Assembly (NCBI GenBank): GCA_963848135.1
Contig: CAWKCK010000018.1
Span: 820,938-884,937, forward strand
Direction: 5' to 3'
Origin: an uncultured delta proteobacterium
GTDB taxonomy: Bacteria > Desulfobacterota > Desulfobacteria > Desulfobacterales > SG8-13
Length of the DNA stretch: 64,000 nt
Part shown: positions 1 through 34,094 of the stretch, piece after piece
Layout of the letters: the number at the start of each line of letters is the position of its first letter
Position numbering within the stretch: the stretch's first letter is position 1
Program-made: the position numbers and the translations under genes
Notes under the pieces: model-generated
Told to the model about the DNA's origin: nothing
Seen by the model: only the letters and a program-made list of their open reading frames with translations
The model's database searches: none

Positions 1-3000
1 CGACAAGTGGATCAGTGATGGTTGTCGGTGCCGGTATTGCCGGCATGCAGGCGTCTCTGGATCTGGCCAATTCGAACTACAAGGTTTACCTGGTGGACAA
101 ATCACCCACCATCGGCGGAATGATGTCCCGCTTGGACAAGACCTTTCCGACCAACGACTGCGCCATGTGAGTGATCTCGCCCAAACTGGTCGAGGTCGGC
201 CGGCACATGAACATTGATTTGATCACTTGCAGCGAAGTTAAAGATGTCTCGGGCGAACCAGGGAACTTTTCGGTCTCGCTCGTCAATCGCCCCCGTTATA
301 TCGATCCGGTAAAGTGCACCGGATGCGGGGAATGCGCCCGACATTGTCCGGTCACCGCCGTCAACCAGTACAATCTGGGCCTGGACGATCGCCGGGCCAC
401 CTACATCGAATATGCCCAGGCGGTTCCTCTGGCTTTTGCGATCGACACCGACACCTGCATCGGTTGCGGCCTGTGTGAAAACATGTGCATCGCCAAGGCT
501 GTCGAATACGACGATCAGGAACGCGAATCCACTGTTAAGGTCGGTTCTGTGATCGTTTCCGCCGGAAGCAAGGGGTATGACCCGTCTCACCTCGATTTTC
601 TGGGGTACGGTAAATCACCCAACGTGGTGACCAGTGAGGAATTCGAAAGAATATTGAGCGCCTCGGGTCCCTACTTCGGCCACCTCATGCGACCGCTTGA
701 TCGCGAACAACCCAAAAAGATCGCCTGGCTCCAGTGCGTCGGATCCCGTGACACTAACAAGTGCGGTAACGGATACTGCTCCTCGGTCTGCTGTATGTAC
801 GCTGTCAAAGAGGCCATGATTGCCAAGGAACATGTCAAGGGCGATTTGGACTGCGCCATTTTCAACATGGACATGCGCACGTTTGGAAAGGATTACGAGC
901 TTTACTACAACAGGGCCAAGGACAAGGACGGCGTCCGTTTCGTCAAATCCCGGATCCACACCATCGACGAGGAACGGGAGTCTGGCGATCTGGTCGTCAA
1001 ATACGTCGATGAAGCCGGCACTATGCAGGAGGAGACCTTCAGTATGGTGGTCCTCTCGGTGGGTCTTCAGATTCAACCGGACACCGTACAGCTGTCCGCT
1101 AAGCTCGGCATTGATCTGAACAGGTACAACTTTGTCAATACGCACCCTTTCAAACCCGTAGAGACCAATCGTCCGGGGGTTTTTGTGTGCGGCGTCATCC
1201 AGGGCCCCAAGGACATTCCCAGCTCGGTCACCGAAGCCAGCGCCGCCGCCTGCATCGCCGGGGCTAAACTGGCCGAGGCCCGCGGTCAGGACATTCCCAG
1301 GGTGGAAGTCCCGACAGAACGGGACATCACCGGCGAAGATCCGCGCATCGGGGTGTTCGTCTGCAACTGCGGCATCAACATCGGCGGCATTGTAGACGTT
1401 CCGGCCGTAAGGCAATACGCTGCCGGCCTGCCGAACGTGGTCTACTCCGACGAAAACCTCTTTACCTGCAGCCAGGACACCCAGGAGAAGATCAAGGAAA
1501 AGATCAAGGAGCATAATCTCAACCGGGTGGTGGTTGCCTCGTGTAGCCCCAAGACCCACGAACCGATGTTCATGGAAACCCTGGAAGCCTGCGGTCTTAA
1601 CCGCTATCTCTTTGAAATGGCCAACATCAGAAACCAGGATTCATGGATTCATTCCAAGGATCCGGATGCCGCCACCGCTAAGGCCAAGGATCTGGTGCGC
1701 ATGTCAATCGCCCGGGCCGCCAACCTGCGGACCCTGCACCAGAAAGTGGTACCGATCAACAAGCGGGCCTTGGTCATCGGTGGGGGTGTGGCCGGAATGA
1801 ACGCCGCCCTGGGTCTCGGCAACCAAGGATTTGAGGTTTCCCTGGTGGAAAAGAACGCCGAGCTGGGCGGATTCTCCCGCAAGCTGCACCACACCATCGA
1901 AGGCGAGGATATCCAGGGTTATCTCAAGGACCTTGTCGCCGATGTACAGGCCAACGAAAAAATCGATGTTCTGACAGATGCCCAAATCGTGGGTGCCGAA
2001 GGGTTCAAGGGGAGTTTCAAGACCGAAGTCCAGACCGGCGCCAACGGTGACACACGACAGATTGATCATGGCATCATCATCGTCGCCACGGGGGCCAACG
2101 AATACCAGCCCAAGGAGTACCTCTACGGCGAGGATAAGCAGGTTCTTACCCAGGTAGAACTGGGCGATCGCCTGGCCGTCCAGGGCGCCGCGGATCTGAG
2201 CAGCGTGGTCATGATCCAGTGCGTCGGGTCCCGCAACGACGAAAATCCCAACTGCTCCCGCATCTGCTGTCAGAATGCCGTCAAGAACGCCCTGGAGATA
2301 AAAAAACTGAATCCGGAAACGCAAGTCTATGTCATGTATCGTGACATGCGAACCTACGGCCTGCTGGAAGATTACTATAAGGAGGCCCGGGGCCAGGGCG
2401 TGATTTTCATCCGGTTCGACAAAGACCAACCACCGGAAGTCAAAAAGAACGGCGCCGGACCGGCGGTGGTGGTCAAAGACCACGTCCTGCAACAAAATAT
2501 TGAAATCAGCGCGGACCTGGTGGTCCTCAGCGCGGGCGTTCAGGCCGCCGACACCGACGGGCTCAGCAATATCATGAAGTTCAACCGCAATCCCCAGGGA
2601 TTTTTCATCGAAGCGCATGTCAAATTGCGGCCGGTCGACATGCCCAGCGAAGGCGTCTTCCTGTGCGGCACGGCCCATGGCCCCAAACTGGTTTCGGAAA
2701 CCATCGCTCAAGCCCAGGCGGCGGCTTCACGGGCCATGACATTTCTGGCCCAGGACGCCATCAAGCTGTCGGCCATCACGGCCAAGGTCGACGTCGAGCA
2801 CTGCGTCAAGTGCCTGACTTGCGTACGCTCCTGCCCGTTCGGCGTCCCGGAATTCAATTCGGAAGCCAAGGAGATCGAAATCAACGAAGCGCTCTGCCAC
2901 GGCTGCGGCGTGTGCACTGCGGTGTGCCCGCGGCAGGTGATTGCACTGAGCTTTTACGAAGACGAAACCATCGTCTGCAAAATTGATGCTTTATTGGATG

Positions 3001-3014
3001 CGGAGGCACTGTAA
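1..3014 (+). CDS. hdrA: Heterodisulfide reductase subunit A-like flavoprotein, large tandem-module form; selenoprotein; 5' end lies upstream of the window
   Basis: Frame is open from base 3 ([25 protein letters not shown]-binding GxGxxG) through [14 protein letters not shown](168-170)-VISPK into the 947-aa ORF. Two FAD modules, QCVGSRD/CSSVCC and QCVGSRN/CSRICC motifs, several CxxCxxCxxxC ferredoxin motifs. Confidence 0.93.
186..203 (+). promoter_or_regulatory. Putative bacterial SECIS element of hdrA
   Basis: Hairpin CTGGTCG-AGGT-CGGCCGG (7 bp including G-U pairs, G-containing loop) starting 15 nt after TGA 168-170. Confidence 0.7.
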
Positions 3015-3442
3015 TGGCAGAATTTGAACCAACGATTATCGCATTTTGTTGTGAATACTGAGGGTATTCGGCTGCGGACCTGGCAGGTTCCATGCGACTC
3101 GATTATCCCATCAACGTCAAAATTATCCGGGTTCCCTGCACGGGCAAAGTGGACGTCTTGCATCTGCTGCGGGCCATTCAAAAAGGCGCCGACGGGGCCT
3201 ATTGCGTTGGCTGTCTCGAAGGGTCCTGCCATTACAACGAAGGCAATCTCAGATGCCGCGAGCGCGTCGACCACGTGCGTATGCTTCTCGATGAAATCGG
3301 CATTGAAGGGGACCGCGTAAGGATGTATAACCTATCTTCGGGTGAAGGCCCAACCTTTGCCGCCTATGCCAAGGAGATGACCGAACATATCCAGGCGCTG
3401 GGACCCAACCCGCTAAAGAATAAGGCAAACGCCAAAAACTAA
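3014..3442 (+). CDS. mvhD: MvhD/FlpD-type [2Fe-2S] subunit, selenoprotein (142 aa with readthrough)
   Basis: ATG 3014 overlaps the hdrA stop (TAATG). [18 protein letters not shown](3059-3061)-GYSAADLAGS continues in frame into ORF 3092-3442 (RVPCTGKV, GCLEGSCHYNEGN). Confidence 0.93.
3076..3090 (+). promoter_or_regulatory. Putative SECIS element of mvhD
   Basis: Hairpin GGACCT-GGC-AGGTTC starting 14 nt after TGA 3059-3061. Confidence 0.6.
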
Positions 3443-3452
3443 GGAGTATATT

Positions 3453-4775
3453 ATGGCCGAGGAAGCGATCAAGATTGGAGGTAAAAAGAAGAGTACGTTC
3501 ATTGACAAGGTGAAGGATTTGCTCCCTGAAGGCGGCAACCTGAACCTGTGTCTGACGTGCGGTGCGTGCTCATCCGGATGCCCGGCAACGGGCCTGGAAA
3601 ACATGGATCCCCGTAAATTTCTGCGCATGGCCGCCCTGGGCATGGATGAAGAGATCACGACCACACCGTGGGTGTGGATGTGCAGCATGTGCACCCGGTG
3701 TGTCTATGTCTGTCCGATGCAGATCAACATCCCCCAACTGGTCTTTTACGCACGGCAGTCCTGGCCACGCGAAAAGCGGCCCAAAGGAATCGTGGGTTCA
3801 TGCGACATGGCCCTCAGAAGCGACACCTGCAGCGCCATGGGCGCCACTGAAGAAGACTTCCAGTTCGTGGTCGAAGACGTGTTGGAGGAATACCAGGAAT
3901 CACAGCCGGAGTTTGCCGAAATGAAAGCCCCGGTCAACAAGAAGGGGGCGGAGTTCTTCCTTAACCAGAATTCCAGAGAACCGGTGACCGAACCGGACGA
4001 GATGGTGCCGTTGTGGAAGATCCTGCACGCCGTCGGTGCCGACTGGACTTACGGCACCAAGGGCTGGGCCGCCGAAAACTACTGCATGTTTATGGCCGAT
4101 GAGGAAAACTGGAAGCACATCATAGAGGTCAAGCAGAAAGCGGTGGAGGATCTGGGCTGTAAGGTCTGGCTCAACACCGAATGAGGGCACGAACTCTTCG
4201 CGGTCCGGTTCGGAGCGCAAAAGTTCAAACTCGACTACAACTTCGAGATTAAAAGCATCATCCAATATTATGCCCAGTGGATCAAAGAAGGCAAGCTGAA
4301 GGTCAGTTCCGACTGGAACAAAGACCGTCAAATCAAATTCACGGTACAGGATCCCTGCCAGCTGGTGCGCAAATCATTCGGTGACCCGGTGGCCGAGGAC
4401 CTGCGGTACGTGGTCAAGGCGGTGGTCGGTGAAGAAAACTTTATCGACATGAGCCCCAACCGGTCGAACAACTACTGCTGTGGCGGTGGCGGCGGTTTCC
4501 TGCAGTCCGGTTACCCCGAAGCACGAAGAGATTACGGCAAACTCAAAGCCGAACAAATTCTCAAGACCGGCGCGGCCTACTGCATCACCCCGTGTCACAA
4601 CTGCCATGCCCAGGTTCATGATCTGTCCGACATCCGTGATCATGCCTGGCAAACGGTTCACCTGTGGACACTGATCTGCCTGTCGATGGGCATCCTCGGT
4701 CCGAACGAACGCGAATATCTCGGTGAGGATCTGAAGGACGTGGATGTTTTTCACCCGGAAAGCTCCAATTTCTAA
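3453..4775 (+). CDS. HdrD/GlpC-like Fe-S oxidoreductase (2x[4Fe-4S] plus CCG domains), selenoprotein (440 aa with readthrough)
   Basis: RBS AAGGAG; CLTCGACSSGCP and CSMCTRCVYVCP. WLNTE-TGA(4182-4184)-GHELF reads in frame without another stop into ORF 4365-4775 (QDPCQ, YCCGGGGG, TPCHNC). Confidence 0.88.
4200..4218 (+). promoter_or_regulatory. Putative SECIS element of the HdrD-like gene
   Basis: Hairpin GCG-G-TCCG-GTT-CGGA-G-CGC starting 15 nt after TGA 4182-4184. Confidence 0.65.
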
Positions 4776-4822
4776 CGGAGTTGACCAACCATTCAGGAGC
4801 GATCGGTGGTTCAGGAGGAAAT

Positions 4823-5503
4823 ATGATAGTCGCGAAAAGAAAGCCCTTTGACGAAATCAAGGAAATGATCAAGCCTTTCAAAAAGGTGCTCAACGTGGGA
4901 TGCGGAACCTGTGTTTCCGTCTGCCTGGCCGGCGGTGAAAAAGAGGTTGCGGTTCTCAATGCGGAGCTCGAAATGGCCCGTAAGCTGGACGACAACCCCG
5001 TCGAGCTGACGGCTTACACTGTGGAACGCCAATGCGACCGTGAATATCTGGCTGAACTCGACGACATGGTCAAGGACTATGACGCCGTCATCTCCATGGC
5101 CTGCGGGGTCGGCATTCAGTTCCTGGCGGAGCGCTTTCCGGACATACCGGTTCTTCCCGGTGTCGACACCACCGGCCTCGCGGTCAACCAGGCCGTGGGT
5201 TGGTACGAAGAACGCTGCCGTTCTTGCGGCAAGTGCGTTCTGGCCATGACCGGCGGTATCTGCCCGGTGACCATGTGCGCCAAGGGCCTTTACAACGGCC
5301 CCTGCGGTGGAACCAACAAAGGCAAGTGCGAGATCAGCCAGGATCAACCCTGTGCCTGGTACATGATTCACGAAAGACTGTCCAGCCAGGAACGACTGGA
5401 TTTGATCAGGGATTTCAAAGAGCCGGCGGACTGGACCGATCAGACACCGCGGACGCTGATTCAGCCGGGGTACAAGAAACCGGAAAAAGAAGAAGCGAAA
5501 TAG
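4823..5503 (+). CDS. metV: Methylenetetrahydrofolate reductase small Fe-S/Zn subunit MetV
   Basis: RBS AGGAGG before ATG 4823; GCGTCVSVC, ERQC, CRSCGKC, CPVTMCAKGLYNGPCGG, CAW motifs; directly upstream of metF. Confidence 0.88.
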   Translation: MIVAKRKPFDEIKEMIKPFKKVLNVGCGTCVSVCLAGGEKEVAVLNAELEMARKLDDNPVELTAYTVERQCDREYLAELDDMVKDYDAVISMACGVGIQFLAERFPDIPVLPGVDTTGLAVNQAVGWYEERCRSCGKCVLAMTGGICPVTMCAKGLYNGPCGGTNKGKCEISQDQPCAWYMIHERLSSQERLDLIRDFKEPADWTDQTPRTLIQPGYKKPEKEEAK

Positions 5504-5557
5504 AATACAGCCGTCTCAACCGACATGAACAATCCCACTTGAAATATAGGTGATACA

Positions 5558-6505
5558 ATGAGCACAGAAGGCAACGGTTACAAATCAGGAAGCAACCTGG
5601 AAAAGGTCCTCAAAGCCGGTCATTTTGCATTCACCGGCGAGTTGGGGCCGCCCCGGGGAGCCAACACAGAGGAAGTGCGTCACAAAGCCTCGTTTTTGAA
5701 GGGCATGGTGGATTCGGTCAACATTACCGATAATCAGACGGCCATGGTCCGCATGTCGAGCTGGGCCGCAAGCCTACTGCTCCTTCAGGAGGGCTTGGAA
5801 CCGAATTTTCAGATGGTCTGCCGCGATCGCAATCGGCTGGCCATGCAGGCCGACATCCTGGGGGCCTCTGCCCACGGTATCCGCAATATGCTCTGCCTGT
5901 CCGGTGACCATCAGCAATTCGGTGATCACCCCCAGGCCAAAGGCGTGTTCGATGTCGATTCCATGCAGCTGATAAAAATGGTCAAACAAATGCGCGATGA
6001 CGGTAAATTCTTGAGTGGCGCCGAACTGGACGGGAGCCCCAAGATCTTTATCGGCGCGGCAGCCAACCCTTTTGCCGATCCGTTCGAGTGGCGCGTTCAT
6101 CGCCTGGCAAAAAAAGTCGAGGCAGGCTGTGATTTCATTCAAACACAGTGCATATACAACATGGAGAAGTTCCGCAAGTGGATCCAACAGGCCAATGACA
6201 TGGGTCTGACGGAAAGAGTCTACATTCTGGCCGGTGTCACGCCGATGAAAAGCGTCGGTATGGCCAAGTATATGAAGAGCAAGGTGCCCGGAATGGATGT
6301 GCCTGATGAAATCATCGAGCGTCTTCAGGGCGCCGGCAAGGGCAAAGTGGCCGCGGAAGGAATCAAGATCGCCTGTGAACAAATCGAAGAATTCAAGGAA
6401 ATGAAAGGCGTCCACGGTGTCCATTTAATGGCCATCGAGTGGGAGCACAAAGTTCCTGAAATTGCCGAACAGGCTAAAGTGTTACCACGACCTGTAATGG
6501 AGTAA
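5558..6505 (+). CDS. metF: Methylenetetrahydrofolate reductase large subunit
   Basis: TGELGPPRG, NITDNQTA, CRDRNRLAMQ, LSGDH, FIQTQ, GVHLM motifs of the MTHFR family. Confidence 0.93.
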   Translation: MSTEGNGYKSGSNLEKVLKAGHFAFTGELGPPRGANTEEVRHKASFLKGMVDSVNITDNQTAMVRMSSWAASLLLLQEGLEPNFQMVCRDRNRLAMQADILGASAHGIRNMLCLSGDHQQFGDHPQAKGVFDVDSMQLIKMVKQMRDDGKFLSGAELDGSPKIFIGAAANPFADPFEWRVHRLAKKVEAGCDFIQTQCIYNMEKFRKWIQQANDMGLTERVYILAGVTPMKSVGMAKYMKSKVPGMDVPDEIIERLQGAGKGKVAAEGIKIACEQIEEFKEMKGVHGVHLMAIEWEHKVPEIAEQAKVLPRPVME

Positions 6506-6528: not shown

Positions 6529-6565
6529 AAAAACCCGGTACAGAAAAACACTGTACCGGGTTTTT
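6529..6565. terminator. Bidirectional intrinsic terminator
   Basis: AAAAACCCGGTACAG-AAAAACA-CTGTACCGGGTTTTT perfect stem after the metF stop, between convergent genes. Confidence 0.85.
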
Positions 6566-12586: not shown

Positions 12587-15355
12587 TTAAGCGGCCCGGG
12601 AAAGTTTGACGGCGCAGACCTTGAACTCCGGAATTTTGGATACCGGATCGAGTACGGCATTGGTCAGGCGGTTTGCGGCCGCCTGGGCGAAATGGAAGGG
12701 AATGAATATCGTGCCGGCAACCGCTTTTGGCGATACCTGAATCTTGGCCTTGATTTGACCGCGCCGGGAGGCAATCTCCACCTCCATGCCATCGTTCAAT
12801 TCGTAGAGGGCGGCATCTTTGGGCGAGATCTCCACAAAGCATTCGGGGGCCCTATCATTGAGCCCGTCGGTCTTCATGGTCATGGTCCCGGTGTGATAGT
12901 GATACAACACCCGGCCAGTGGTCAGGTAGAGCGGATACTCGTCATCGGTCAGTTCAGCCGGTGGCGTATATTCGATGGCGTGAAACATCCCCTTACCGCG
13001 GGTAAACTGTTCCCTGTGCAGGATCGGGGTACCGGGATGCCCCGGTGTGGGGCACGGCCAATGCAAGCCTTCGACCGCAATGCGGTCGTAGGAGATCCCT
13101 GCATAAGAAGGCGTCACCCGGGCAAGCTCTTCGAAAACAGCCTGGCTGTTTTCGTATGCCATGGGTGTCCCCATCCGTGTGGCGATGTCGCATAGAATCT
13201 GCCAATCATCCTTAACGTCCCCAGGGGCATCGACGGCCTTGCGTACCATCTGAACACGTCTCTCAGTATTTGAAAATGTGCCATCCTTTTCAGCAAAACA
13301 TTTGGCGGGCAGAACCACGTCAGCCAATTGGGCCGTTTCGGTCATGAAGATATCCTGAACCACCAGGAAATCGAGATGTTTCAGTGACGCTTCAGCGTGG
13401 TTCAGATCGGGATCGGACACAAGGGGATTTTCGCCGATAATGTAAAGTGCCTTGAATTCCCCATCGTGGGCTTTGGGTATCATTTGGGTAACGGTCAAAC
13501 CCGGCTGAGTCGGAAGATCCGATACCCCCCAAGCGTCCTCCATTTTCTTGGCCACGGCAAGATCGCTCACCGGCTGGTAGCCGGAATACACGTTGGGGAG
13601 ACCTCCCATGTCGCAAGCCCCCTGAACATTGTTCTGGCCACGCAGCGGATTAACTCCTCCCCCGCGCTTGCCCATATGACCGCACAACATCGCCAGGTTG
13701 GCGAGGCTCTTGACGTTGTCCGTGCCATGACTGTGCTGGGTAATGCCCATACAATAGAGGATGCTGGCGGCTTTGGCACCGGCATAGAGCCGGGCCGCTT
13801 CGACCAGGTCTACCGCTGCGATGCCGGTGATGCCCTCGACGTATTCCGGTGTATATTTTTCGACGGTCTTCTTCAGTTCTTCAAATCCTTCGGTACGATT
13901 GGCGACAAACGCTTTGTCGTAAAGGTCTTCGGCTATGATTACGTGCATCATGCCGTTCAGCCAGGCCACGTCAGTCCCCAGATTCTGTCGTAACCATTTG
14001 TGGGCAAAAGATGCCAGTTTGATTCGCCGGGGATCGACCAGAATCAGCTTGGCCCCTTTGAAGGCGACCGCACGTTTCACATGCCGGGAGAGAACAGGGT
14101 GATTCTCGGTGGTGTTCGAGCCGGTTACCAGAATGACCTCGGCGTCTTCAATGTCCTCAATGGTGTTCGTCATGGCTCCGCTTCCAAATGCTGCGGCCAG
14201 ACCGGCCACGGTGGAAGAATGTCAGAGACGGGCGCAGTGATCGATATTGTTGGTTTTGAGAACCGCCCGGGCAAACTTGTTGGCGATGTAATTCTCCTCG
14301 TTGGTGACGCGGGCCGAGGTCAGCACACCGATGCTGTCGGCACCATGCTCGTCCTTGATCTTGCCCAGTTTCTCAGCCACAAAGTCAAAGGCTTCATCCC
14401 AACTCGCCTCGCGAAAACGACCGTTTTCTTTAATAAGCGGCGCGGTGAGCCGCTCAGGGGAATGGATAAAATCAAACCCGAAACGCCCCTTGACGCACAA
14501 CGAACCGTGGTTTGGAACCACTTCTTCAGCACCCGTCACCTTCACGACCCGGTTATCCCTGACGTGCAGGTCCATCTGGCAACCAACACCGCAATAGCTG
14601 CAGGTGGTACGAACTTTTTGGGTTTCCCATGGCCGTACCTTGTAGCGAACGTCTTTCTCCACCAGGGCGCCTACAGGGCACGCCTGCACACACTCGCCGC
14701 AGAAGACGCAGTCCGAATCTTTCAACGGCCGGTCACCGGCGGCAATTATCTTTGTGCGGGCCCCCCGGAATCCGAAATGGATGGCATTGTTGACCTGGAT
14801 CTCATTGCAGGCCTGCACACACCTGCCACATTGAATACAACGCGAGAAATCCCTTACGATAAAGGGGTTGACGGTCTCCATGGGATAGGGCGTCTCGGTA
14901 CCGGCAAAACGTTCCCCGGATACCTGATACCGGTAAGACAGATCTTGGAGATGGCAGTCGCCCCATACGGGACACATCTCATCGCTACCATCGTCTTTTT
15001 GGACATTGAGCTGGAATTGGGTCCAGTCCTGCCCGTCCGAGCCGCGGACAGCGCAGTTGTGATTCCCCGAAGAGAGCAACAGCTGCAAGATCAGCTTGCG
15101 GGCTTTGACAACCGTGGTGGTCTCGGTTTGAACAACCATATTGTCCGCCGCCGGTGTCGCACAGGAAGGTAACAGGCTGCGGGCACCCTTGACCTCCACG
15201 ACGCAGATGCGGCAGGCGCCGGTCGGAAAGGCACCTTTCAACCAGCAAAGGGTCGGAATGTCGATATGGTTTTGACGGGCCACCTCCAGTATGGTTTGCC
15301 CCGGTTCGAATGATAGGTCATTGCCATTGATCGTCATGCGATGTTCTGCAGCCAT
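12587..15355 (-). CDS. fdhF: Formate dehydrogenase alpha subunit (Mo/W-bisPGD) with NuoG-like N-terminal Fe-S domains; selenoprotein (922 aa with readthrough)
   Basis: RBS GGAG before ATG 15355; IPTLC...GACRICVVE, CIQCGRCVQAC, TTCSYCGVGC. NIDHCARL-TGA(14224-14222)-HSSTVAGL joins the two track ORFs in frame; PLRGQNNVQG motif. Confidence 0.95.
14193..14209 (-). promoter_or_regulatory. Putative SECIS element of fdh
   Basis: Minus-strand hairpin GTGGCC-GGTCT-GGCCGC starting 12 nt after the TGA; loop resembles the GGUCU loop of the E. coli fdhF SECIS. Confidence 0.75.
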
Positions 15356-15409
15356 GGTGTTGGAGTCTCCAGTAACAGTTGGTAAGATCATCTCAAAGTA
15401 CAAGTTTGA

Positions 15410-27049: not shown

Positions 27050-27459
27050 GTAAAATACCTTCACCGGTATCGTTCCCTTGCTCGCCCGTATACGGCAACG
27101 AGGCAATTGACTATCCATGGCCAGTTTAATTCGGCGGTAATGTACGCCCCCGAAAAACCGGCTAACCCTTCTTTCGATCTTTCTGCGGCTGATTTCTGTT
27201 TTACGGGTCTACCTTCTCCCCCCACCTGTTTTTTGATTTGACTCCAAGCTGTAATTTTAATAAGTAGCGAAAACACGAAAACATAATCGTCCCCCAACCC
27301 TCGCATGCCTTTTGATCATCGTCGTTTCAGTGGCAGTTACCCATCTATCGGCAATCGATCCCAAAGAGTTGCGCCAACAGAAAAAAACGGGGATGAAGAC
27401 TTTCATCAATTTCCCGGCATCGCCGGTCGAATTCAAAGAAAAATCGCTTGGCATTCGCT

Positions 27460-29376
27460 ATGAAACATTTGTTTACTCCTTTTACGATTAAAAACATCAC
27501 TCTTCAAAACAGGATCGTTCTGCCCCCCTTGGCCTCTTTTCTCCTCGGAAATGGCGGGACGATCACCGCACGAACCATTGAGCACTACCGTCGCCGTGCC
27601 GCAGGTGGGCCGGCCATGGTTATCATGGAAGCCTGCGCCGTTTCTCCAGAAGGTATTGTCTCTAAAAACCAGGCCCGTATTGACGATGATCGAATTGTTG
27701 AGGGGCTTTCAAAGATCACTGCCGCGCTGAAGTCTGAGGGTGTAATACCAGCGCTTCAGATCCACCATGCCGGCCGCCAGACCTCACCCAAAGTTATCAA
27801 TTGCCGGCCCCTGGCGCCATCTCCCCTATCTAGCCCGTATATAACGGGAGAGGTTGAACCGCTGAGTGTCGATCAAATTCAGGAACTCGTCCACCGTTTC
27901 GCCGAGGCCGCTGTCAGAGGCCAACAGGCCGGTTTTGAACTTCTCGAAATTCACGGGGCCCACGGGTATCTGATCAATCAGTTTCTTTCCAGGTATTCGA
28001 ATATCAGAGAGGACGCCTATGGTGGTGACACAGCTGGTCGAACCCGGTTTGCCAGCGAAATCATTGTGGAAATAAGAAAGCGCTTGGGTCCGGACTACCC
28101 GATATCTTTCAAGATCAGTGCCCAGGAATTCGTACCGGATGGGTTGACCGTTGAAGAAAGCATAGCCATATTATCGATTCTGGTCGGTGCCGGTATTGAT
28201 GTCGTTCAGGTATCCGCTGGTAACGACTTGACCCCCGAATGGATCTGCCAGCCGATGTTTATGAAAAAAGCGTGTCTGGCCGAATCTGCAGCCACAATTA
28301 AAAGCGCACTCGATATCCCGGTAATGACGGTCGGCAGGATCAATGACCCCTGGACAGCCGATGCGATCCTCGCCAAGGGTATGGCGGATCTGGTTTGCAT
28401 CGGCCGCGGCCTGATGGCCGATCCAGAAATGCCGATCAAAGCCAAACAAGGCCGATTCGACGAAATCCGGACATGCATCGCCTGCAATACCTGTATGCAG
28501 TCGATATTTCGCTACGGTCGATTGGAATGCCTTGTCAATCCGTCACTGGGACGCGAACAGGAAATGCAGATCCTCCCGGCCGAGGTGCCCAAGAAGGTCA
28601 TGGTTATCGGTGGCGGACCGGGGGGATTGAACGCCGCCTGGGTGGCAGCCAAACGCGGCCACGACGTTCATCTATATGAAAGGCAACCGTTTCTTGGCGG
28701 CCAGCTGGTGCCGGGCAGCCGGACCGATTATAAAAGGGAGATGCAGAGTCTGATCAACTTCCAAAAAAAACAGGTTGAACTCAATGGCGTCAGCTGTCAC
28801 CTGGGACAAACCGCCACCGCAGAAACCGTGCTGAAGGTCAATCCGGATATAGTCATTTTGGCCACCGGTTCCAAACCGATGCTTCCCTCGGTAACCGGCA
28901 TCGATAGTGAATCCGTTACGACGTTTGACGTCGTCCTAAACGGAATGCACCAGGATATTCGGCCAACAGTCGTTATCGGTGGCGGCGCAACCGGATGTGA
29001 AGTAGCCTACCATCTTTCCGCCACCGGATCCCCCGTCCTCATCGTTGAAGTGATGCCCAAAATCGGCGGTGATCTCGAGGCCATAACCAAGAAAATCCTG
29101 ATCCGCAAACTCAAGGAAAACAACGTCAGGATTTTAACGGAACACCGCCTGGCGCGGGTGGAAAACGACACCGTGGTGGTTATCGGGCCGGATAAGATCG
29201 AGAAGAAACTCGCGGCGGGTCGTGTGGTCGTGGCAATCGGAATACAACCTGATGATACGATCCATAAAAAAATCCGCGACCTCGGATATGAAACCCATGT
29301 TATCGGCGACTGCCTCAAACCCCGTTCTGCCAAAACGGCCATATACGAGGGTGCCAAACTCGGCCTGACGATTTAG
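27460..29376 (+). CDS. NADH:flavin oxidoreductase (old yellow enzyme / 2,4-dienoyl-CoA reductase family) with Fe-S cluster
   Basis: EIHGAHGYLINQF, CIACNTC...CLVNP, VIGGGPGG and VIGGGATG. Confidence 0.9.
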   Translation: MKHLFTPFTIKNITLQNRIVLPPLASFLLGNGGTITARTIEHYRRRAAGGPAMVIMEACAVSPEGIVSKNQARIDDDRIVEGLSKITAALKSEGVIPALQIHHAGRQTSPKVINCRPLAPSPLSSPYITGEVEPLSVDQIQELVHRFAEAAVRGQQAGFELLEIHGAHGYLINQFLSRYSNIREDAYGGDTAGRTRFASEIIVEIRKRLGPDYPISFKISAQEFVPDGLTVEESIAILSILVGAGIDVVQVSAGNDLTPEWICQPMFMKKACLAESAATIKSALDIPVMTVGRINDPWTADAILAKGMADLVCIGRGLMADPEMPIKAKQGRFDEIRTCIACNTCMQSIFRYGRLECLVNPSLGREQEMQILPAEVPKKVMVIGGGPGGLNAAWVAAKRGHDVHLYERQPFLGGQLVPGSRTDYKREMQSLINFQKKQVELNGVSCHLGQTATAETVLKVNPDIVILATGSKPMLPSVTGIDSESVTTFDVVLNGMHQDIRPTVVIGGGATGCEVAYHLSATGSPVLIVEVMPKIGGDLEAITKKILIRKLKENNVRILTEHRLARVENDTVVVIGPDKIEKKLAAGRVVVAIGIQPDDTIHKKIRDLGYETHVIGDCLKPRSAKTAIYEGAKLGLTI

Positions 29377-32111: not shown

Positions 32112-34094
32112 ATGGCCGAGGAGAAAAAAATCATTCCCAAGAAAAAAGCAAAAGAGATCAATTTCCGGGATCTGACCACTTGCGATGCCACGATCCAGAT
32201 GCTTGAAAAAGCCAAGAAAGACGGCGTGGAGACCGCCTGGGACCGGGCCATCAATATGAAAGCCTGTCCCATCGGCGCCGACTCCGCCTGCTGCAAGCAC
32301 TGCGCCATGGGTCCCTGCCGGCTCAATGCCAAAGACCCCTACGCCAAGGTCGGGGTCTGCGGGGCCACCATCGATACCATCATGTCCCGTAACTTCGCCC
32401 GCATGGTCGCCGCCGGCGGTTCTGCCCATACCGATCACGGCATGAGCATGCTCGATCTTTTCCGGGATGTGGTCAACGGCAAAATCAAGGATTACCAGAT
32501 CAAGGATCCGGTCAAGCTGGAAGAAGTCGCCCGCTCCATCGGTATCGAAACCGAGGACCGCGAGCTAATGGATATCGCCAATGACCTCTATAAAGAGCTG
32601 GAACGAACTTACACCCAGGTGGAGGGCGAAATTCCTTTTGCCAAGCGTGTACCGGCCAAAACTCTCGAAACCTGGCGTAAAGAAGGCATCGTCCCCCGCG
32701 GCGCCATGCGCGAAATCATGGAGTGCATGCACCGCAGCCATATGGGTGTGGATCAGGATTACACCAACATTATCAAGCAAATCAGCCGCACGGCCCTGGC
32801 CGACGGGTGGGGCGGTTCCATGGTGGCCACCGAAATTTCCGACATTCTTTTTGGCACACCCTCGCCCATCAGCATCGAGGTCAATATGGGCGTGCTCAAG
32901 GAAGACTACGTCAACATCATCGTCCACGGCCATGAACCAAACCTGTTCGAGTCGATGATCGAGTCCTGCAACGAGAATACCCTGATCGAAGAGGCCAAGA
33001 AAGCCGGCGCCAAGGGCATCAACCTGGCCGGTATGTGCTGCTCCGGTGCCGAGGTGCTGGTGAGACACGGTATTCCACACGCCGGTAACTTCATGTCGAC
33101 CGAAACGATACTTGTCACCGGTGCCGTGGATGCCATGTGCGTCGACGTCCAGTGCATCAAGCAGGGTTTGGCCAAGGTCGCCGACTGCTACGGCACACCC
33201 CTGATTACCACCAACCCGCGCTGCAAGATCGAAGGGGCCACCCACATCGAGTTCCATGAGCACACCCCCAAGGAGTGCACCGACGAGGTGGTCATCAAGG
33301 CGATATCCCGTTTCAAAAACCGCACTGCCGCGATAGAAATACCGCAGATCCGCAACATCGGCGTGCACGGGTTCTCACACGAGTACATCAAATACATGCT
33401 CGGCGGGACCTTCCGGGCCAGCTATCGCCCGCTCAACGACAACATCATCAATGGTCGCATCCGTGGGGTGGCCGGTGTCGTGGGTTGCACCAATCCCAGG
33501 GTCAAACAGGACTGGGTTCATGTCGAACTGGTCAAAGAACTGATCAAGAACGACGTATTGGTCGTTCAGACTGGTTGTTCTCAGGTCGCGCTGGCCAAAG
33601 CCGGGCTAACCACGCCGGAAGCCGCGGTTATGGCCGGACCGGGACTGCGCGAGGTCTGTGAGACCGTCGGCATGCCGCCGGTGCTCGGTATCGGATCCTG
33701 CGTCGACAACAGCCGGATCCTGATCGCCTGCGCCGAAATGGTCAACGAGGGTGGCTTGGGCGACAGCATGGCCGATCTACCGGTGGCCGGGGCGGCACCG
33801 GAGTGGATGAGCGAAAAGGCCATTTGTATCGGCCAATATTTCGTCGCCTCGGGTGTGTTCACGGTCTTCGGTGTGCACTTTCCGATTGTCGAAGGCACCA
33901 AGTTCCACGAACTGCTGTTCAACGGTCTGGAAAAGCAGGGCTTCGGCAAGTGGGGTTTCACACCGGATCCCTATGAAATGGCCAGCATGATGATCGCTCA
34001 CATCGACAAGAAGCGCAAGGCTCTGGGCATCGACAAAGCCCGCGATCGCGTGTTGATGGATATGGCCGATCGCCAGAAACTGGATGTCGCCTAA
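32112..34094 (+). CDS. cooS: Anaerobic Ni-Fe carbon monoxide dehydrogenase catalytic subunit
   Basis: CPIG...CCKHCAMGPC (D/B clusters); C-cluster ligands in GHEP, MCCSG, DVQC, VGCTN, TGCS, GSCVDN; EWMSEKA. Confidence 0.96.
   Translation: MAEEKKIIPKKKAKEINFRDLTTCDATIQMLEKAKKDGVETAWDRAINMKACPIGADSACCKHCAMGPCRLNAKDPYAKVGVCGATIDTIMSRNFARMVAAGGSAHTDHGMSMLDLFRDVVNGKIKDYQIKDPVKLEEVARSIGIETEDRELMDIANDLYKELERTYTQVEGEIPFAKRVPAKTLETWRKEGIVPRGAMREIMECMHRSHMGVDQDYTNIIKQISRTALADGWGGSMVATEISDILFGTPSPISIEVNMGVLKEDYVNIIVHGHEPNLFESMIESCNENTLIEEAKKAGAKGINLAGMCCSGAEVLVRHGIPHAGNFMSTETILVTGAVDAMCVDVQCIKQGLAKVADCYGTPLITTNPRCKIEGATHIEFHEHTPKECTDEVVIKAISRFKNRTAAIEIPQIRNIGVHGFSHEYIKYMLGGTFRASYRPLNDNIINGRIRGVAGVVGCTNPRVKQDWVHVELVKELIKNDVLVVQTGCSQVALAKAGLTTPEAAVMAGPGLREVCETVGMPPVLGIGSCVDNSRILIACAEMVNEGGLGDSMADLPVAGAAPEWMSEKAICIGQYFVASGVFTVFGVHFPIVEGTKFHELLFNGLEKQGFGKWGFTPDPYEMASMMIAHIDKKRKALGIDKARDRVLMDMADRQKLDVA

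Follow-up and report, generated by a model that had tools for sequence, protein, structure and literature searches.

The 64,000-nt stretch of DNA analysed here (the window; G000:C18:820938-884937, on contig CAWKCK010000018.1 of an uncultured delta proteobacterium) begins inside an operon of seven genes, in the order hdrA', long mvhD', hdrA, mvhD, hdrD-like, metV and metF. The first five of these genes contain one in-frame TGA each, read here as a selenocysteine (Sec) codon. We propose, as a reading that we give a little better than an even chance, that the operon encodes a flavin-based bifurcating methyl-/methylene-tetrahydrofolate (THF) oxidoreductase of the Hdr type, similar to the type IV enzymes, in which HdrBC would be replaced by a soluble selenoprotein of the DsrK type and for which DsrC is a possible partner. 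We infer both the electron bifurcation and the formation of a complex from the sequences. To our knowledge, the redox partner of MetVF is unsettled in sulfate reducers running the pathway in reverse, and the operon offers concrete candidates for it, namely the DsrK-like selenoprotein and the two HdrA modules. The natural partner of MetVF-type methylene-THF reductases is unsettled in acetogens as well (Oppinger 2021, PMC8760232). The operon occurs in hundreds of Desulfobacterales genomes, and one of the carriers, Desulfonema magnum, is in culture, hence the question is open to bench work.

Gene coordinates are counted in the window unless a G000:C18 position is given (Table 1). Open reading frames split at a TGA were joined by reading the TGA as selenocysteine. 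The window contains five tightly packed genes of the operon on the plus strand, with intergenic gaps from hdrA to metF of −1, 10, 47 and 54 nt; the overlap of hdrA and mvhD is TAATG. Position 1, where a first-pass annotation of this DNA let the module start, is only the window edge: the ATG of hdrA with its AAGGAG ribosome site lies 18 nt ahead of the window start, and a second hdrA-mvhD pair is located upstream. The gene identities given in that annotation (hdrA, mvhD, hdrD-like, metV, metF) were confirmed by Pfam and NCBIfam, and so was the tight linkage of the redox genes to metV-metF with one terminator at the end, given the above gaps and the fold of the terminator (−25.8 kcal/mol, z −5.70, equalled by none of 200 shuffles). 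A consensus terminator scan had missed this terminator, which was confirmed later by folding; on the plus strand inside the operon the scan found no internal terminator-like site of note.

Table 1. Features of the seven-gene operon (positions in the window, in G000:C18 or in HdrA residues, as given)
Feature	Position	Strand	Remarks
hdrA'	G000:C18:817027-820047	+	1006 aa, second fused-double HdrA, one TGA
mvhD' (long)	G000:C18:820158-820907	+	249 aa, one TGA; ends 11 nt ahead of hdrA
hdrA	before 1 to 3014	+	1010 aa, fused double HdrA; ATG at G000:C18:820919
HdrA Sec codon (U63), predicted	168-170	+	aligns with Cys197 of 5odc_A and with 'X' of 9sfi_A
HdrA UGA hairpin	186-203	+	candidate bacterial SECIS, 18 nt 3' of the UGA
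HdrA, flavin domain with inserted ferredoxin	HdrA residues 13-367		solved chain 155-506
HdrA, N-terminal cluster domain and start of second flavin domain	HdrA residues 446-618		solved chain 4-176
HdrA, flavin domain end and C-terminal ferredoxin	HdrA residues 837-1007		solved chain 486-655
mvhD	3014-3442	+	142 aa, [2Fe-2S] adaptor subunit; Pfam FlpD 1.8e-46
MvhD Sec codon (U16), predicted	3059-3061	+	aligns with first 'X' of 9sfi_K; Cys in other solved MvhD chains
MvhD UGA hairpin	3076-3090	+	candidate SECIS, 17 nt 3' of the UGA
HdrD-like gene	3453-4775	+	440 aa, soluble DsrK/HmcF/TmcB-type iron-sulfur protein, HdrC-like dicluster and one CCG domain
HdrD-like Sec codon (U244), predicted	4182-4184	+	aligns with E-C-G-H Cys of HmcF and TmcB of the same genome
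HdrD UGA hairpin	4201-4217	+	SECIS-like, covaries across 73 sequences
metV	4823-5503	+	226 aa; Pfam PF12225 7.6e-34
metF	5558-6505	+	315 aa, methylene-THF reductase; Pfam PF02219 5.1e-40
intrinsic terminator	6534-6565	+	10-bp G+C-rich stem followed by UUUUU; closes the operon

Judged by sequence comparison, the three TGA codons of the window genes, and all five across the operon, are selenocysteine codons, because TGA and Cys interchange at the same columns, the selenocysteine machinery is present, the hairpin of the hdrD-like gene covaries, and the positions match those marked 'X' in comparison chains, which are solved archaeal HdrA and VhuD. The first-pass annotation had noted one in-frame TGA at a Cys position in each of hdrA, mvhD and the hdrD-like gene, and the homologue alignments indeed show Cys or 'X' there. 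Its count of three selenium-dependent redox subunits holds for the codons that it had seen but is too low for the module, which has five predicted selenoproteins in seven genes. U67 of MvhD' falls at the other 'X' position of 9sfi_K, where other solved chains of MvhD have Cys. In the HdrD-like protein, U244 aligns also with the Cys of E-C-G-T in a DsrK-like paralogue of the same genome.

Three surveys were made on one-genome-per-species contigs, centred on the HdrD-like protein, MetF and long MvhD, and the best 80 loci were retained in each; for the HdrD-like protein these are the 80 best of at least 594 relatives. Codons were counted in the 80 MetF loci from matches that span the site with 55% identity or more. 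TGA was found in 40 of 41 matches of hdrA (the remaining one has Cys), 53 of 55 of mvhD (Cys in the other two), all 54 of hdrD, 17 of 18 of hdrA' (Cys in the exception) and all 27 of mvhD'. Among the copies below 55% identity, six of seven mvhD (Val in one) and all five hdrA' have Cys. In the HdrD-centred survey, TGA occurs at 82 of 82 sites. The genome contains tRNA-Sec, and its SelA (622 bits), SelB (374 bits) and SelD (372 bits) all score above the cut-offs. The SelD gene (G000:C3:479380-480300) itself has one in-frame TGA.

Standard gene calling breaks all five selenoprotein genes at the UGA, which is of consequence for annotation and also speaks for true stop codons or sequencing errors, with the genes split or dead. 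We give this explanation practically no credence, since the frame is open and conserved on both sides of the TGA, the TGA of hdrA, mvhD and hdrD is retained at the above counts with Cys at every exception, the full machinery is encoded, and the HdrD hairpin covaries. HdrA, FrhD/MvhD and an Fe-S oxidoreductase (GlpC) have been catalogued as deltaproteobacterial selenoproteins, and glpC-hdrA-frhD operons have been described (Zhang et al. 2006, PMC1794560); in Desulfobacterium autotrophicum, selenocysteine was assigned to hdrA1/A2, hdrD4 and four mvhD genes (PMC2702500). The same three families have an in-frame UGA at Cys columns here too, and the excerpts of these two papers do not link them to metVF.

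The hairpins downstream of the UGA codons were compared as putative selenocysteine insertion sequences (SECIS). For the HdrD hairpin, 98.8% of cells are paired in the alignment of 73 sequences versus 91.8% in shuffles. Pair 26/30 is GC in 49 sequences, UA in 22, AU in one and GU in one, that is, it shows compensatory changes. The covariation score is equalled by none of 500 shuffles, and slid controls pair in at most 41.5%. RNAalifold yields seven near-invariant pairs without covariation for the HdrA hairpin (42 distinct sequences; z −1.45 for the single-sequence fold), and the MvhD hairpin keeps six pairs in 51 distinct sequences, again without covariation.

Pfam matches HdrA with Pyr_redox_2 and four Fer4 stretches, and the protein scores 970.8 bits with the NCBIfam model HdrA2, under the cut-off of 1100. 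The domain map in Table 1 comes from alignment to one solved 659-residue HdrA chain. The two halves of HdrA are 31% identical over 249 aa (E 1e-18), and the identity between HdrA' and HdrA is 52%. Of the two halves of HdrA, only the first has the equivalent of Cys197 (U63), and only the second has the N-terminal domain. Cys197 ligates the N-terminal cluster of the partner HdrA, and fused HdrAs, including that of the Moorella MetFV complex, consist of two fused HdrA domains with complementary halves (Chadwick et al. 2022, PMC9012536). The iron-sulfur cluster in the N-terminal-type domain of the second half is probably completed by U63 from the first, and the single chain would serve as its own heterodimer. 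The tandem double module of the first-pass annotation is thereby supported, but not as a distinction from Moorella, whose HdrA is also fused and described with the same complementary pattern (PMC9012536). The motif CC-x4-K has its Lys in both halves (K276 and K768); K276, in CCMYAVK, corresponds to about residue 409 of 5odc_A by alignment offset.

MvhD matches solved VhuD/MvhD chains with E from 5e-39 to 2e-33. The predicted model of MvhD' (predicted local distance difference test, pLDDT, 85.6; predicted template-modelling score, pTM, 0.83) consists of an MvhD fold (5odc_D, template-modelling (TM) score 0.81, target-normalised), a helical linker and a winged-helix-like end, the C-terminus being a succession of helix, helix, helix and hairpin.

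Separate hdrB and hdrC genes, which in the first-pass annotation would have marked a canonical complex, were found neither among the seven genes nor within 5 kb upstream; HdrC-like genes are present elsewhere in the genome. In the HdrD-like protein, Pfam finds a CCG domain (1e-11) and a Fer4 dicluster. Compared with solved structures, the protein aligns with HdrC at residues 10-103 (E 5e-13) and with the C-terminal CCG domain of HdrB at residues 326-414 (E 0.0023). The first CCG region is shrunk to a single E-U-G-H residue, which leaves one intact CCG domain. The suggested replacement of HdrB and HdrC by one fused protein is therefore correct in that an HdrC-like dicluster is joined to an HdrB-like CCG domain, but the protein is of the DsrK/HmcF/TmcB type rather than a plain fusion. 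HmcF, TmcB and DsrK are its best family matches in NCBIfam, with 161.6, 157.3 and 111 bits, all far below the cut-offs of 750, 735 and 400, respectively; the HmcF and TmcB of the same genome score 919 and 849 bits. With DsrK, HmcF and TmcB, which belong to membrane complexes of sulfate respiration, it shares the N-terminal dicluster, the one intact C-terminal CCG domain and the E-C-G-H residue, the Cys of which in HmcF and TmcB is the predicted selenocysteine here. Unlike them, it is soluble, is predicted to carry selenium, and is encoded in an operon with HdrA, MvhD and MetVF; the neighbours of its gene are mvhD and metV, with no gene of a membrane cytochrome b-type partner adjacent.

For the type IV enzyme MetFV-HdrABC-MvhD of Moorella thermoacetica, a bifurcating mechanism involving a second, unidentified acceptor has been proposed (PMC8760232, PMC5861303), and the HdrA of this complex has two FAD (Buckel & Thauer 2018, PMC5861303). 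The operon resembles the Moorella type IV cluster in the adjacency of metF and metV (54-nt gap), the presence of mvhD and hdrA in the cluster and the fused-double HdrA, but mvhD and hdrA are present in two copies each. It differs by one DsrK-type HdrD-like selenoprotein in place of separate hdrB and hdrC, by the second HdrA and long MvhD upstream, by five predicted selenocysteines, and by the lack of an NAD(P)H module in either HdrA, compared with the NADH-oxidising HdrA of Moorella. Judged from its sequence, the operon is more fittingly described as a variant that works in the type IV manner than as type IV proper, because separate HdrB/HdrC and an NADH-oxidising HdrA are both absent. The host differs as well: the genome encodes DsrA, DsrC and an acetyl-CoA synthase subunit, and by this gene content the organism is a sulfate reducer with the Wood-Ljungdahl pathway. 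Therefore the likely direction is methyl-THF oxidation.

Another known system with a similar build is BamDEF of the class II benzoyl-CoA reductase of Geobacter metallireducens (bioRxiv 10.64898/2026.04.10.717634), compared here by its published description. BamE is a fused HdrA dimer in one chain with a selenocysteine; BamF is an MvhD-type adaptor more than 100 residues longer than usual and with a winged helix, a description that the model of MvhD' resembles; BamD is an HdrB/C-fusion or HdrD-like subunit, comparable to the HdrD-like protein. Going by this description, the operon has all three features. Unlike in Bam, the tungsten module bamBC and the input module bamGHI are absent from the operon and its flanks, and MetVF is attached instead. 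BamE has Lys280 in the first half and Gln768 in the second, as described in the same preprint, whereas the HdrA of the window has Lys in both.

In the proposed mechanism, MetF and MetV would interconvert methyl-THF and methylene-THF, and the short MvhD would connect MetV, for electron transfer, with the FAD of the fused-double HdrA, whose flavin would split or join electron pairs. One branch would exit through the inserted ferredoxin domain of HdrA. The other would take in turn the HdrC-like clusters of the HdrD-like protein, its one CCG-type cluster and the selenocysteine next to it, where a disulfide or trisulfide would be reduced. DsrC is proposed as the most likely substrate because of the analogy with DsrK, HmcF and TmcB; for TmcB-type CCG proteins, an interaction with DsrC has been predicted (Murali 2023). 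A second HdrA-type module, connected in series, may consist of HdrA' and the long MvhD', which has a winged helix domain. A complete oxidiser would be expected to run the net reaction towards methyl-THF oxidation. The methyl-THF/methylene-THF couple has E0' of −200 mV (Buckel & Thauer 2018, PMC5861303); ferredoxin reduction would be driven in part by the reduction of the sulfur carrier, and an acceptor more positive than −200 mV could pay for it.

A more specific version, in which two HdrA modules in series couple methyl-THF oxidation by MetVF to the reduction of a DsrC trisulfide or disulfide at the selenocysteine of a soluble DsrK-type subunit and to the formation of reduced ferredoxin, is speculative and in our view improbable. 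The series of HdrA modules would echo the coupled modules of benzoyl-CoA reductase (bioRxiv 10.64898/2026.04.10.717634). If true, this version would identify the physiological electron acceptor that has long been sought for methylene-THF reductase in sulfate reducers with complete oxidation, and the Wood-Ljungdahl pathway would be wired straight into sulfite reduction. That sulfate reducers have Hdr genes next to those of the Wood-Ljungdahl pathway has been published before (Murali 2023). Neither the seven-gene architecture nor a link between MetVF and DsrC was found described in the literature searched, a selection without several key papers.

The first-pass annotation had suggested a distinct architecture for the methyl branch. 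The survey of metVF neighbourhoods does not bear this out: hdrD-metV-metF occurs in 54 of the 80 closest MetF loci, and 11 more are too short upstream to judge. The 54 loci comprise 28 with mvhD'-hdrA-mvhD-hdrD-metV-metF, 13 with one HdrA (often with an insert of about 1.3 kb) in front of mvhD-hdrD-metV-metF, 10 with hdrA-mvhD-hdrD-metV-metF, where the upstream part is too short to place them with the long-mvhD or the single-HdrA form, and three with hdrD-metV-metF only, also too short upstream. Six loci have other arrangements. In the long-mvhD survey, the next gene on the downstream side encodes an HdrA in all 73 assessable loci, and the next one on the upstream side does so in 70 of 72. The sequence extends 7 kb or more downstream in 45 loci; of these, 19 have hdrD-metV-metF, 17 have metV-metF and nine have neither, so 36 carry metVF. 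In the HdrD survey, other genes of the operon are found in the stored flanks of 25 of the 80 loci, and 13 of these have mvhD-hdrD-metV. The gene order is kept across many genomes at 70–95% protein identity. Among the carriers are Desulfonema magnum 4be13 (L104), with the single-HdrA form, Desulfobacterium sp. N47 (L180) and the HSG8 strain (L125/L184), with the seven-gene form, as well as Olavius symbionts and genomes of Syntrophobacterales and Desulfohalobiaceae. The architecture is thus widespread in Desulfobacterales and their relatives and not rare.

A number of observations weigh against the proposed bifurcating oxidoreductase or against its parts. The evidence for DsrC as the substrate is family analogy, and BamD, the closest structurally studied relative, passes electrons to an electron-transferring flavoprotein (ETF) and is described as having no heterodisulfide site (bioRxiv 10.64898/2026.04.10.717634). 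In the purified Moorella enzyme, HdrA is the site of NADH oxidation (Oppinger 2021, PMC8760232), and an NAD(P)H module is absent from both HdrAs of the operon, which align over their full length without the GltD/NfnB-type insert. The HdrA of a second cluster in the genome has such an insert, and this cluster could be the main enzyme. The equivalence of K276 with Lys409 derives from an alignment offset. The HdrA and MvhD hairpins are invariant and add little, and the single-sequence SECIS folds are not significant alone (z from −1.45 to +0.58). The HdrD-like gene is not tied to MetVF: 55 of the 80 hdrD loci have no other operon gene in the stored flanks, in Desulfospira joergensenii this gene is located between a helicase gene and parAB, and in nine of the 80 MetF loci the order is hdrA-mvhD-metV-metF with no hdrD between.

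The description of BamD, which binds ETF and has no heterodisulfide pocket (bioRxiv 10.64898/2026.04.10.717634), favours an alternative with the same build and a high-potential partner other than DsrC, namely ETF feeding menaquinone, as with BamD, or a cysteine-rich GcvH-domain protein. For the latter, GcvH-domain genes occur in 11 of the 80 long-mvhD loci, in three of them (L237, L245 and L247) between hdrA' and mvhD', and gcvH and lpdA adjoin metVF in acetogens (Oppinger 2021, PMC8760232). However, the predicted selenocysteine takes the place of a Cys that is conserved among DsrK, HmcF and TmcB, and this points to thiol/disulfide chemistry rather than plain electron transfer; the operon has no etf gene, no GcvH-like gene was seen in the flanks of the other 69 long-mvhD loci, and the lipoyl-lysine position of the two GcvH-like proteins encoded 5–7 kb upstream of the operon is, by eye, not conserved. 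We hold a partner of this kind to be rather unlikely.

The above spread of the HdrD-like gene, often encoded elsewhere, agrees also with the possibility that the genes are mere neighbours, with MetVF working alone as a type II enzyme that depends on ferredoxin and with another reaction served by the Hdr-like proteins; type II MetVF enzymes are active alone (Oppinger 2021, PMC8760232). The single terminator, the tight spacing (−1 to 54 nt), the lack of notable internal terminator-like sites on the plus strand, the order conserved across genomes, and the presence of MetFV together with Hdr subunits in the purified Moorella complex (PMC5861303, PMC8760232) argue against it and make it very improbable.

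The second cluster is located 30 kb away on the minus strand (L085, G000:C18:783000-800000, positions 13266-3634). It consists of a metF-like gene, a gene for a 1477-aa HdrA, mvhD, metV, metF, a receiver-domain gene and a gene for an HdrD-like selenoprotein 71% identical to that of the window. Its HdrA carries a GltD/NfnB-type NAD(P)H insert, with Fer4_20 and Pyr_redox_2 at residues 146-548. This module in a paralogue of the same genome, the insert of about 1.3–1.4 kb in the upstream HdrA of many relatives (e.g. L065 and L183) and the similarity of the gene set to MetFV-HdrABC-MvhD are in favour of a reductive enzyme like that of Moorella type IV, in which NAD(P)H, via a partner encoded elsewhere, would reduce methylene-THF and a second acceptor for CO2 fixation. 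Such a role of the window operon appears unlikely to us, given that neither of its HdrAs has the NAD(P)H insert and that, with dsrA and dsrC present, acetyl-CoA oxidation is at least as likely as fixation.

A third set of mvhD-like, metV and metF genes is present on the minus strand of L086 (G000:C17:1268000-1280000, positions 7804-5326); its metF match from the whole-genome search contains one TAG. In locus L131 (8806-9198) and similar hdrD-less hdrA-mvhD-metV-metF loci, MvhD has Cys at the position of selenocysteine in the window. The L131 gene, the one among these translated with table 11, has one stop codon there, which may be a UGA at another site.

Upstream of the operon there is a gene for a universal stress protein, followed, on the opposite strand, by the genes of a PAS histidine kinase and of a sigma-54 activator (L004:6703-9706); this activator/kinase pair adjoins the operon in several relatives as well, e.g. 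L173, L189 and L196. In the 412-nt region before hdrA', a sigma-70 consensus scan of the plus strand found no promoter-like site, and no match to the sigma-54 consensus TGGCAC-N5-TTGCA (GG and GC fixed, at most three mismatches) was found; nor was there one with at most two mismatches before hdrA' in 15 related loci. Beyond the kinase/activator pair lie two GcvH-domain genes and two antiporter-like genes. The former, 5–7 kb upstream (L004:4035-5042 and 5121-6083; G000:C18:810034-812082), encode GcvH-like paralogues of 335 and 320 aa, in which the N-terminus is rich in cysteine, with repeated C-x-C..FD motifs, and the GcvH domain is C-terminal.

Elsewhere in the window, positions 12587-15403 of the minus strand encode a formate-dehydrogenase-type molybdopterin enzyme with an N-terminal 2Fe-2S/4Fe-4S domain in two open reading frames, split between 14209 and 14222, probably at another selenocysteine UGA. 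A prismane/CO-dehydrogenase-family gene is found at 32112-34094, and a fusion of old yellow enzyme with pyridine-nucleotide-disulfide oxidoreductase, at 27448-29376.

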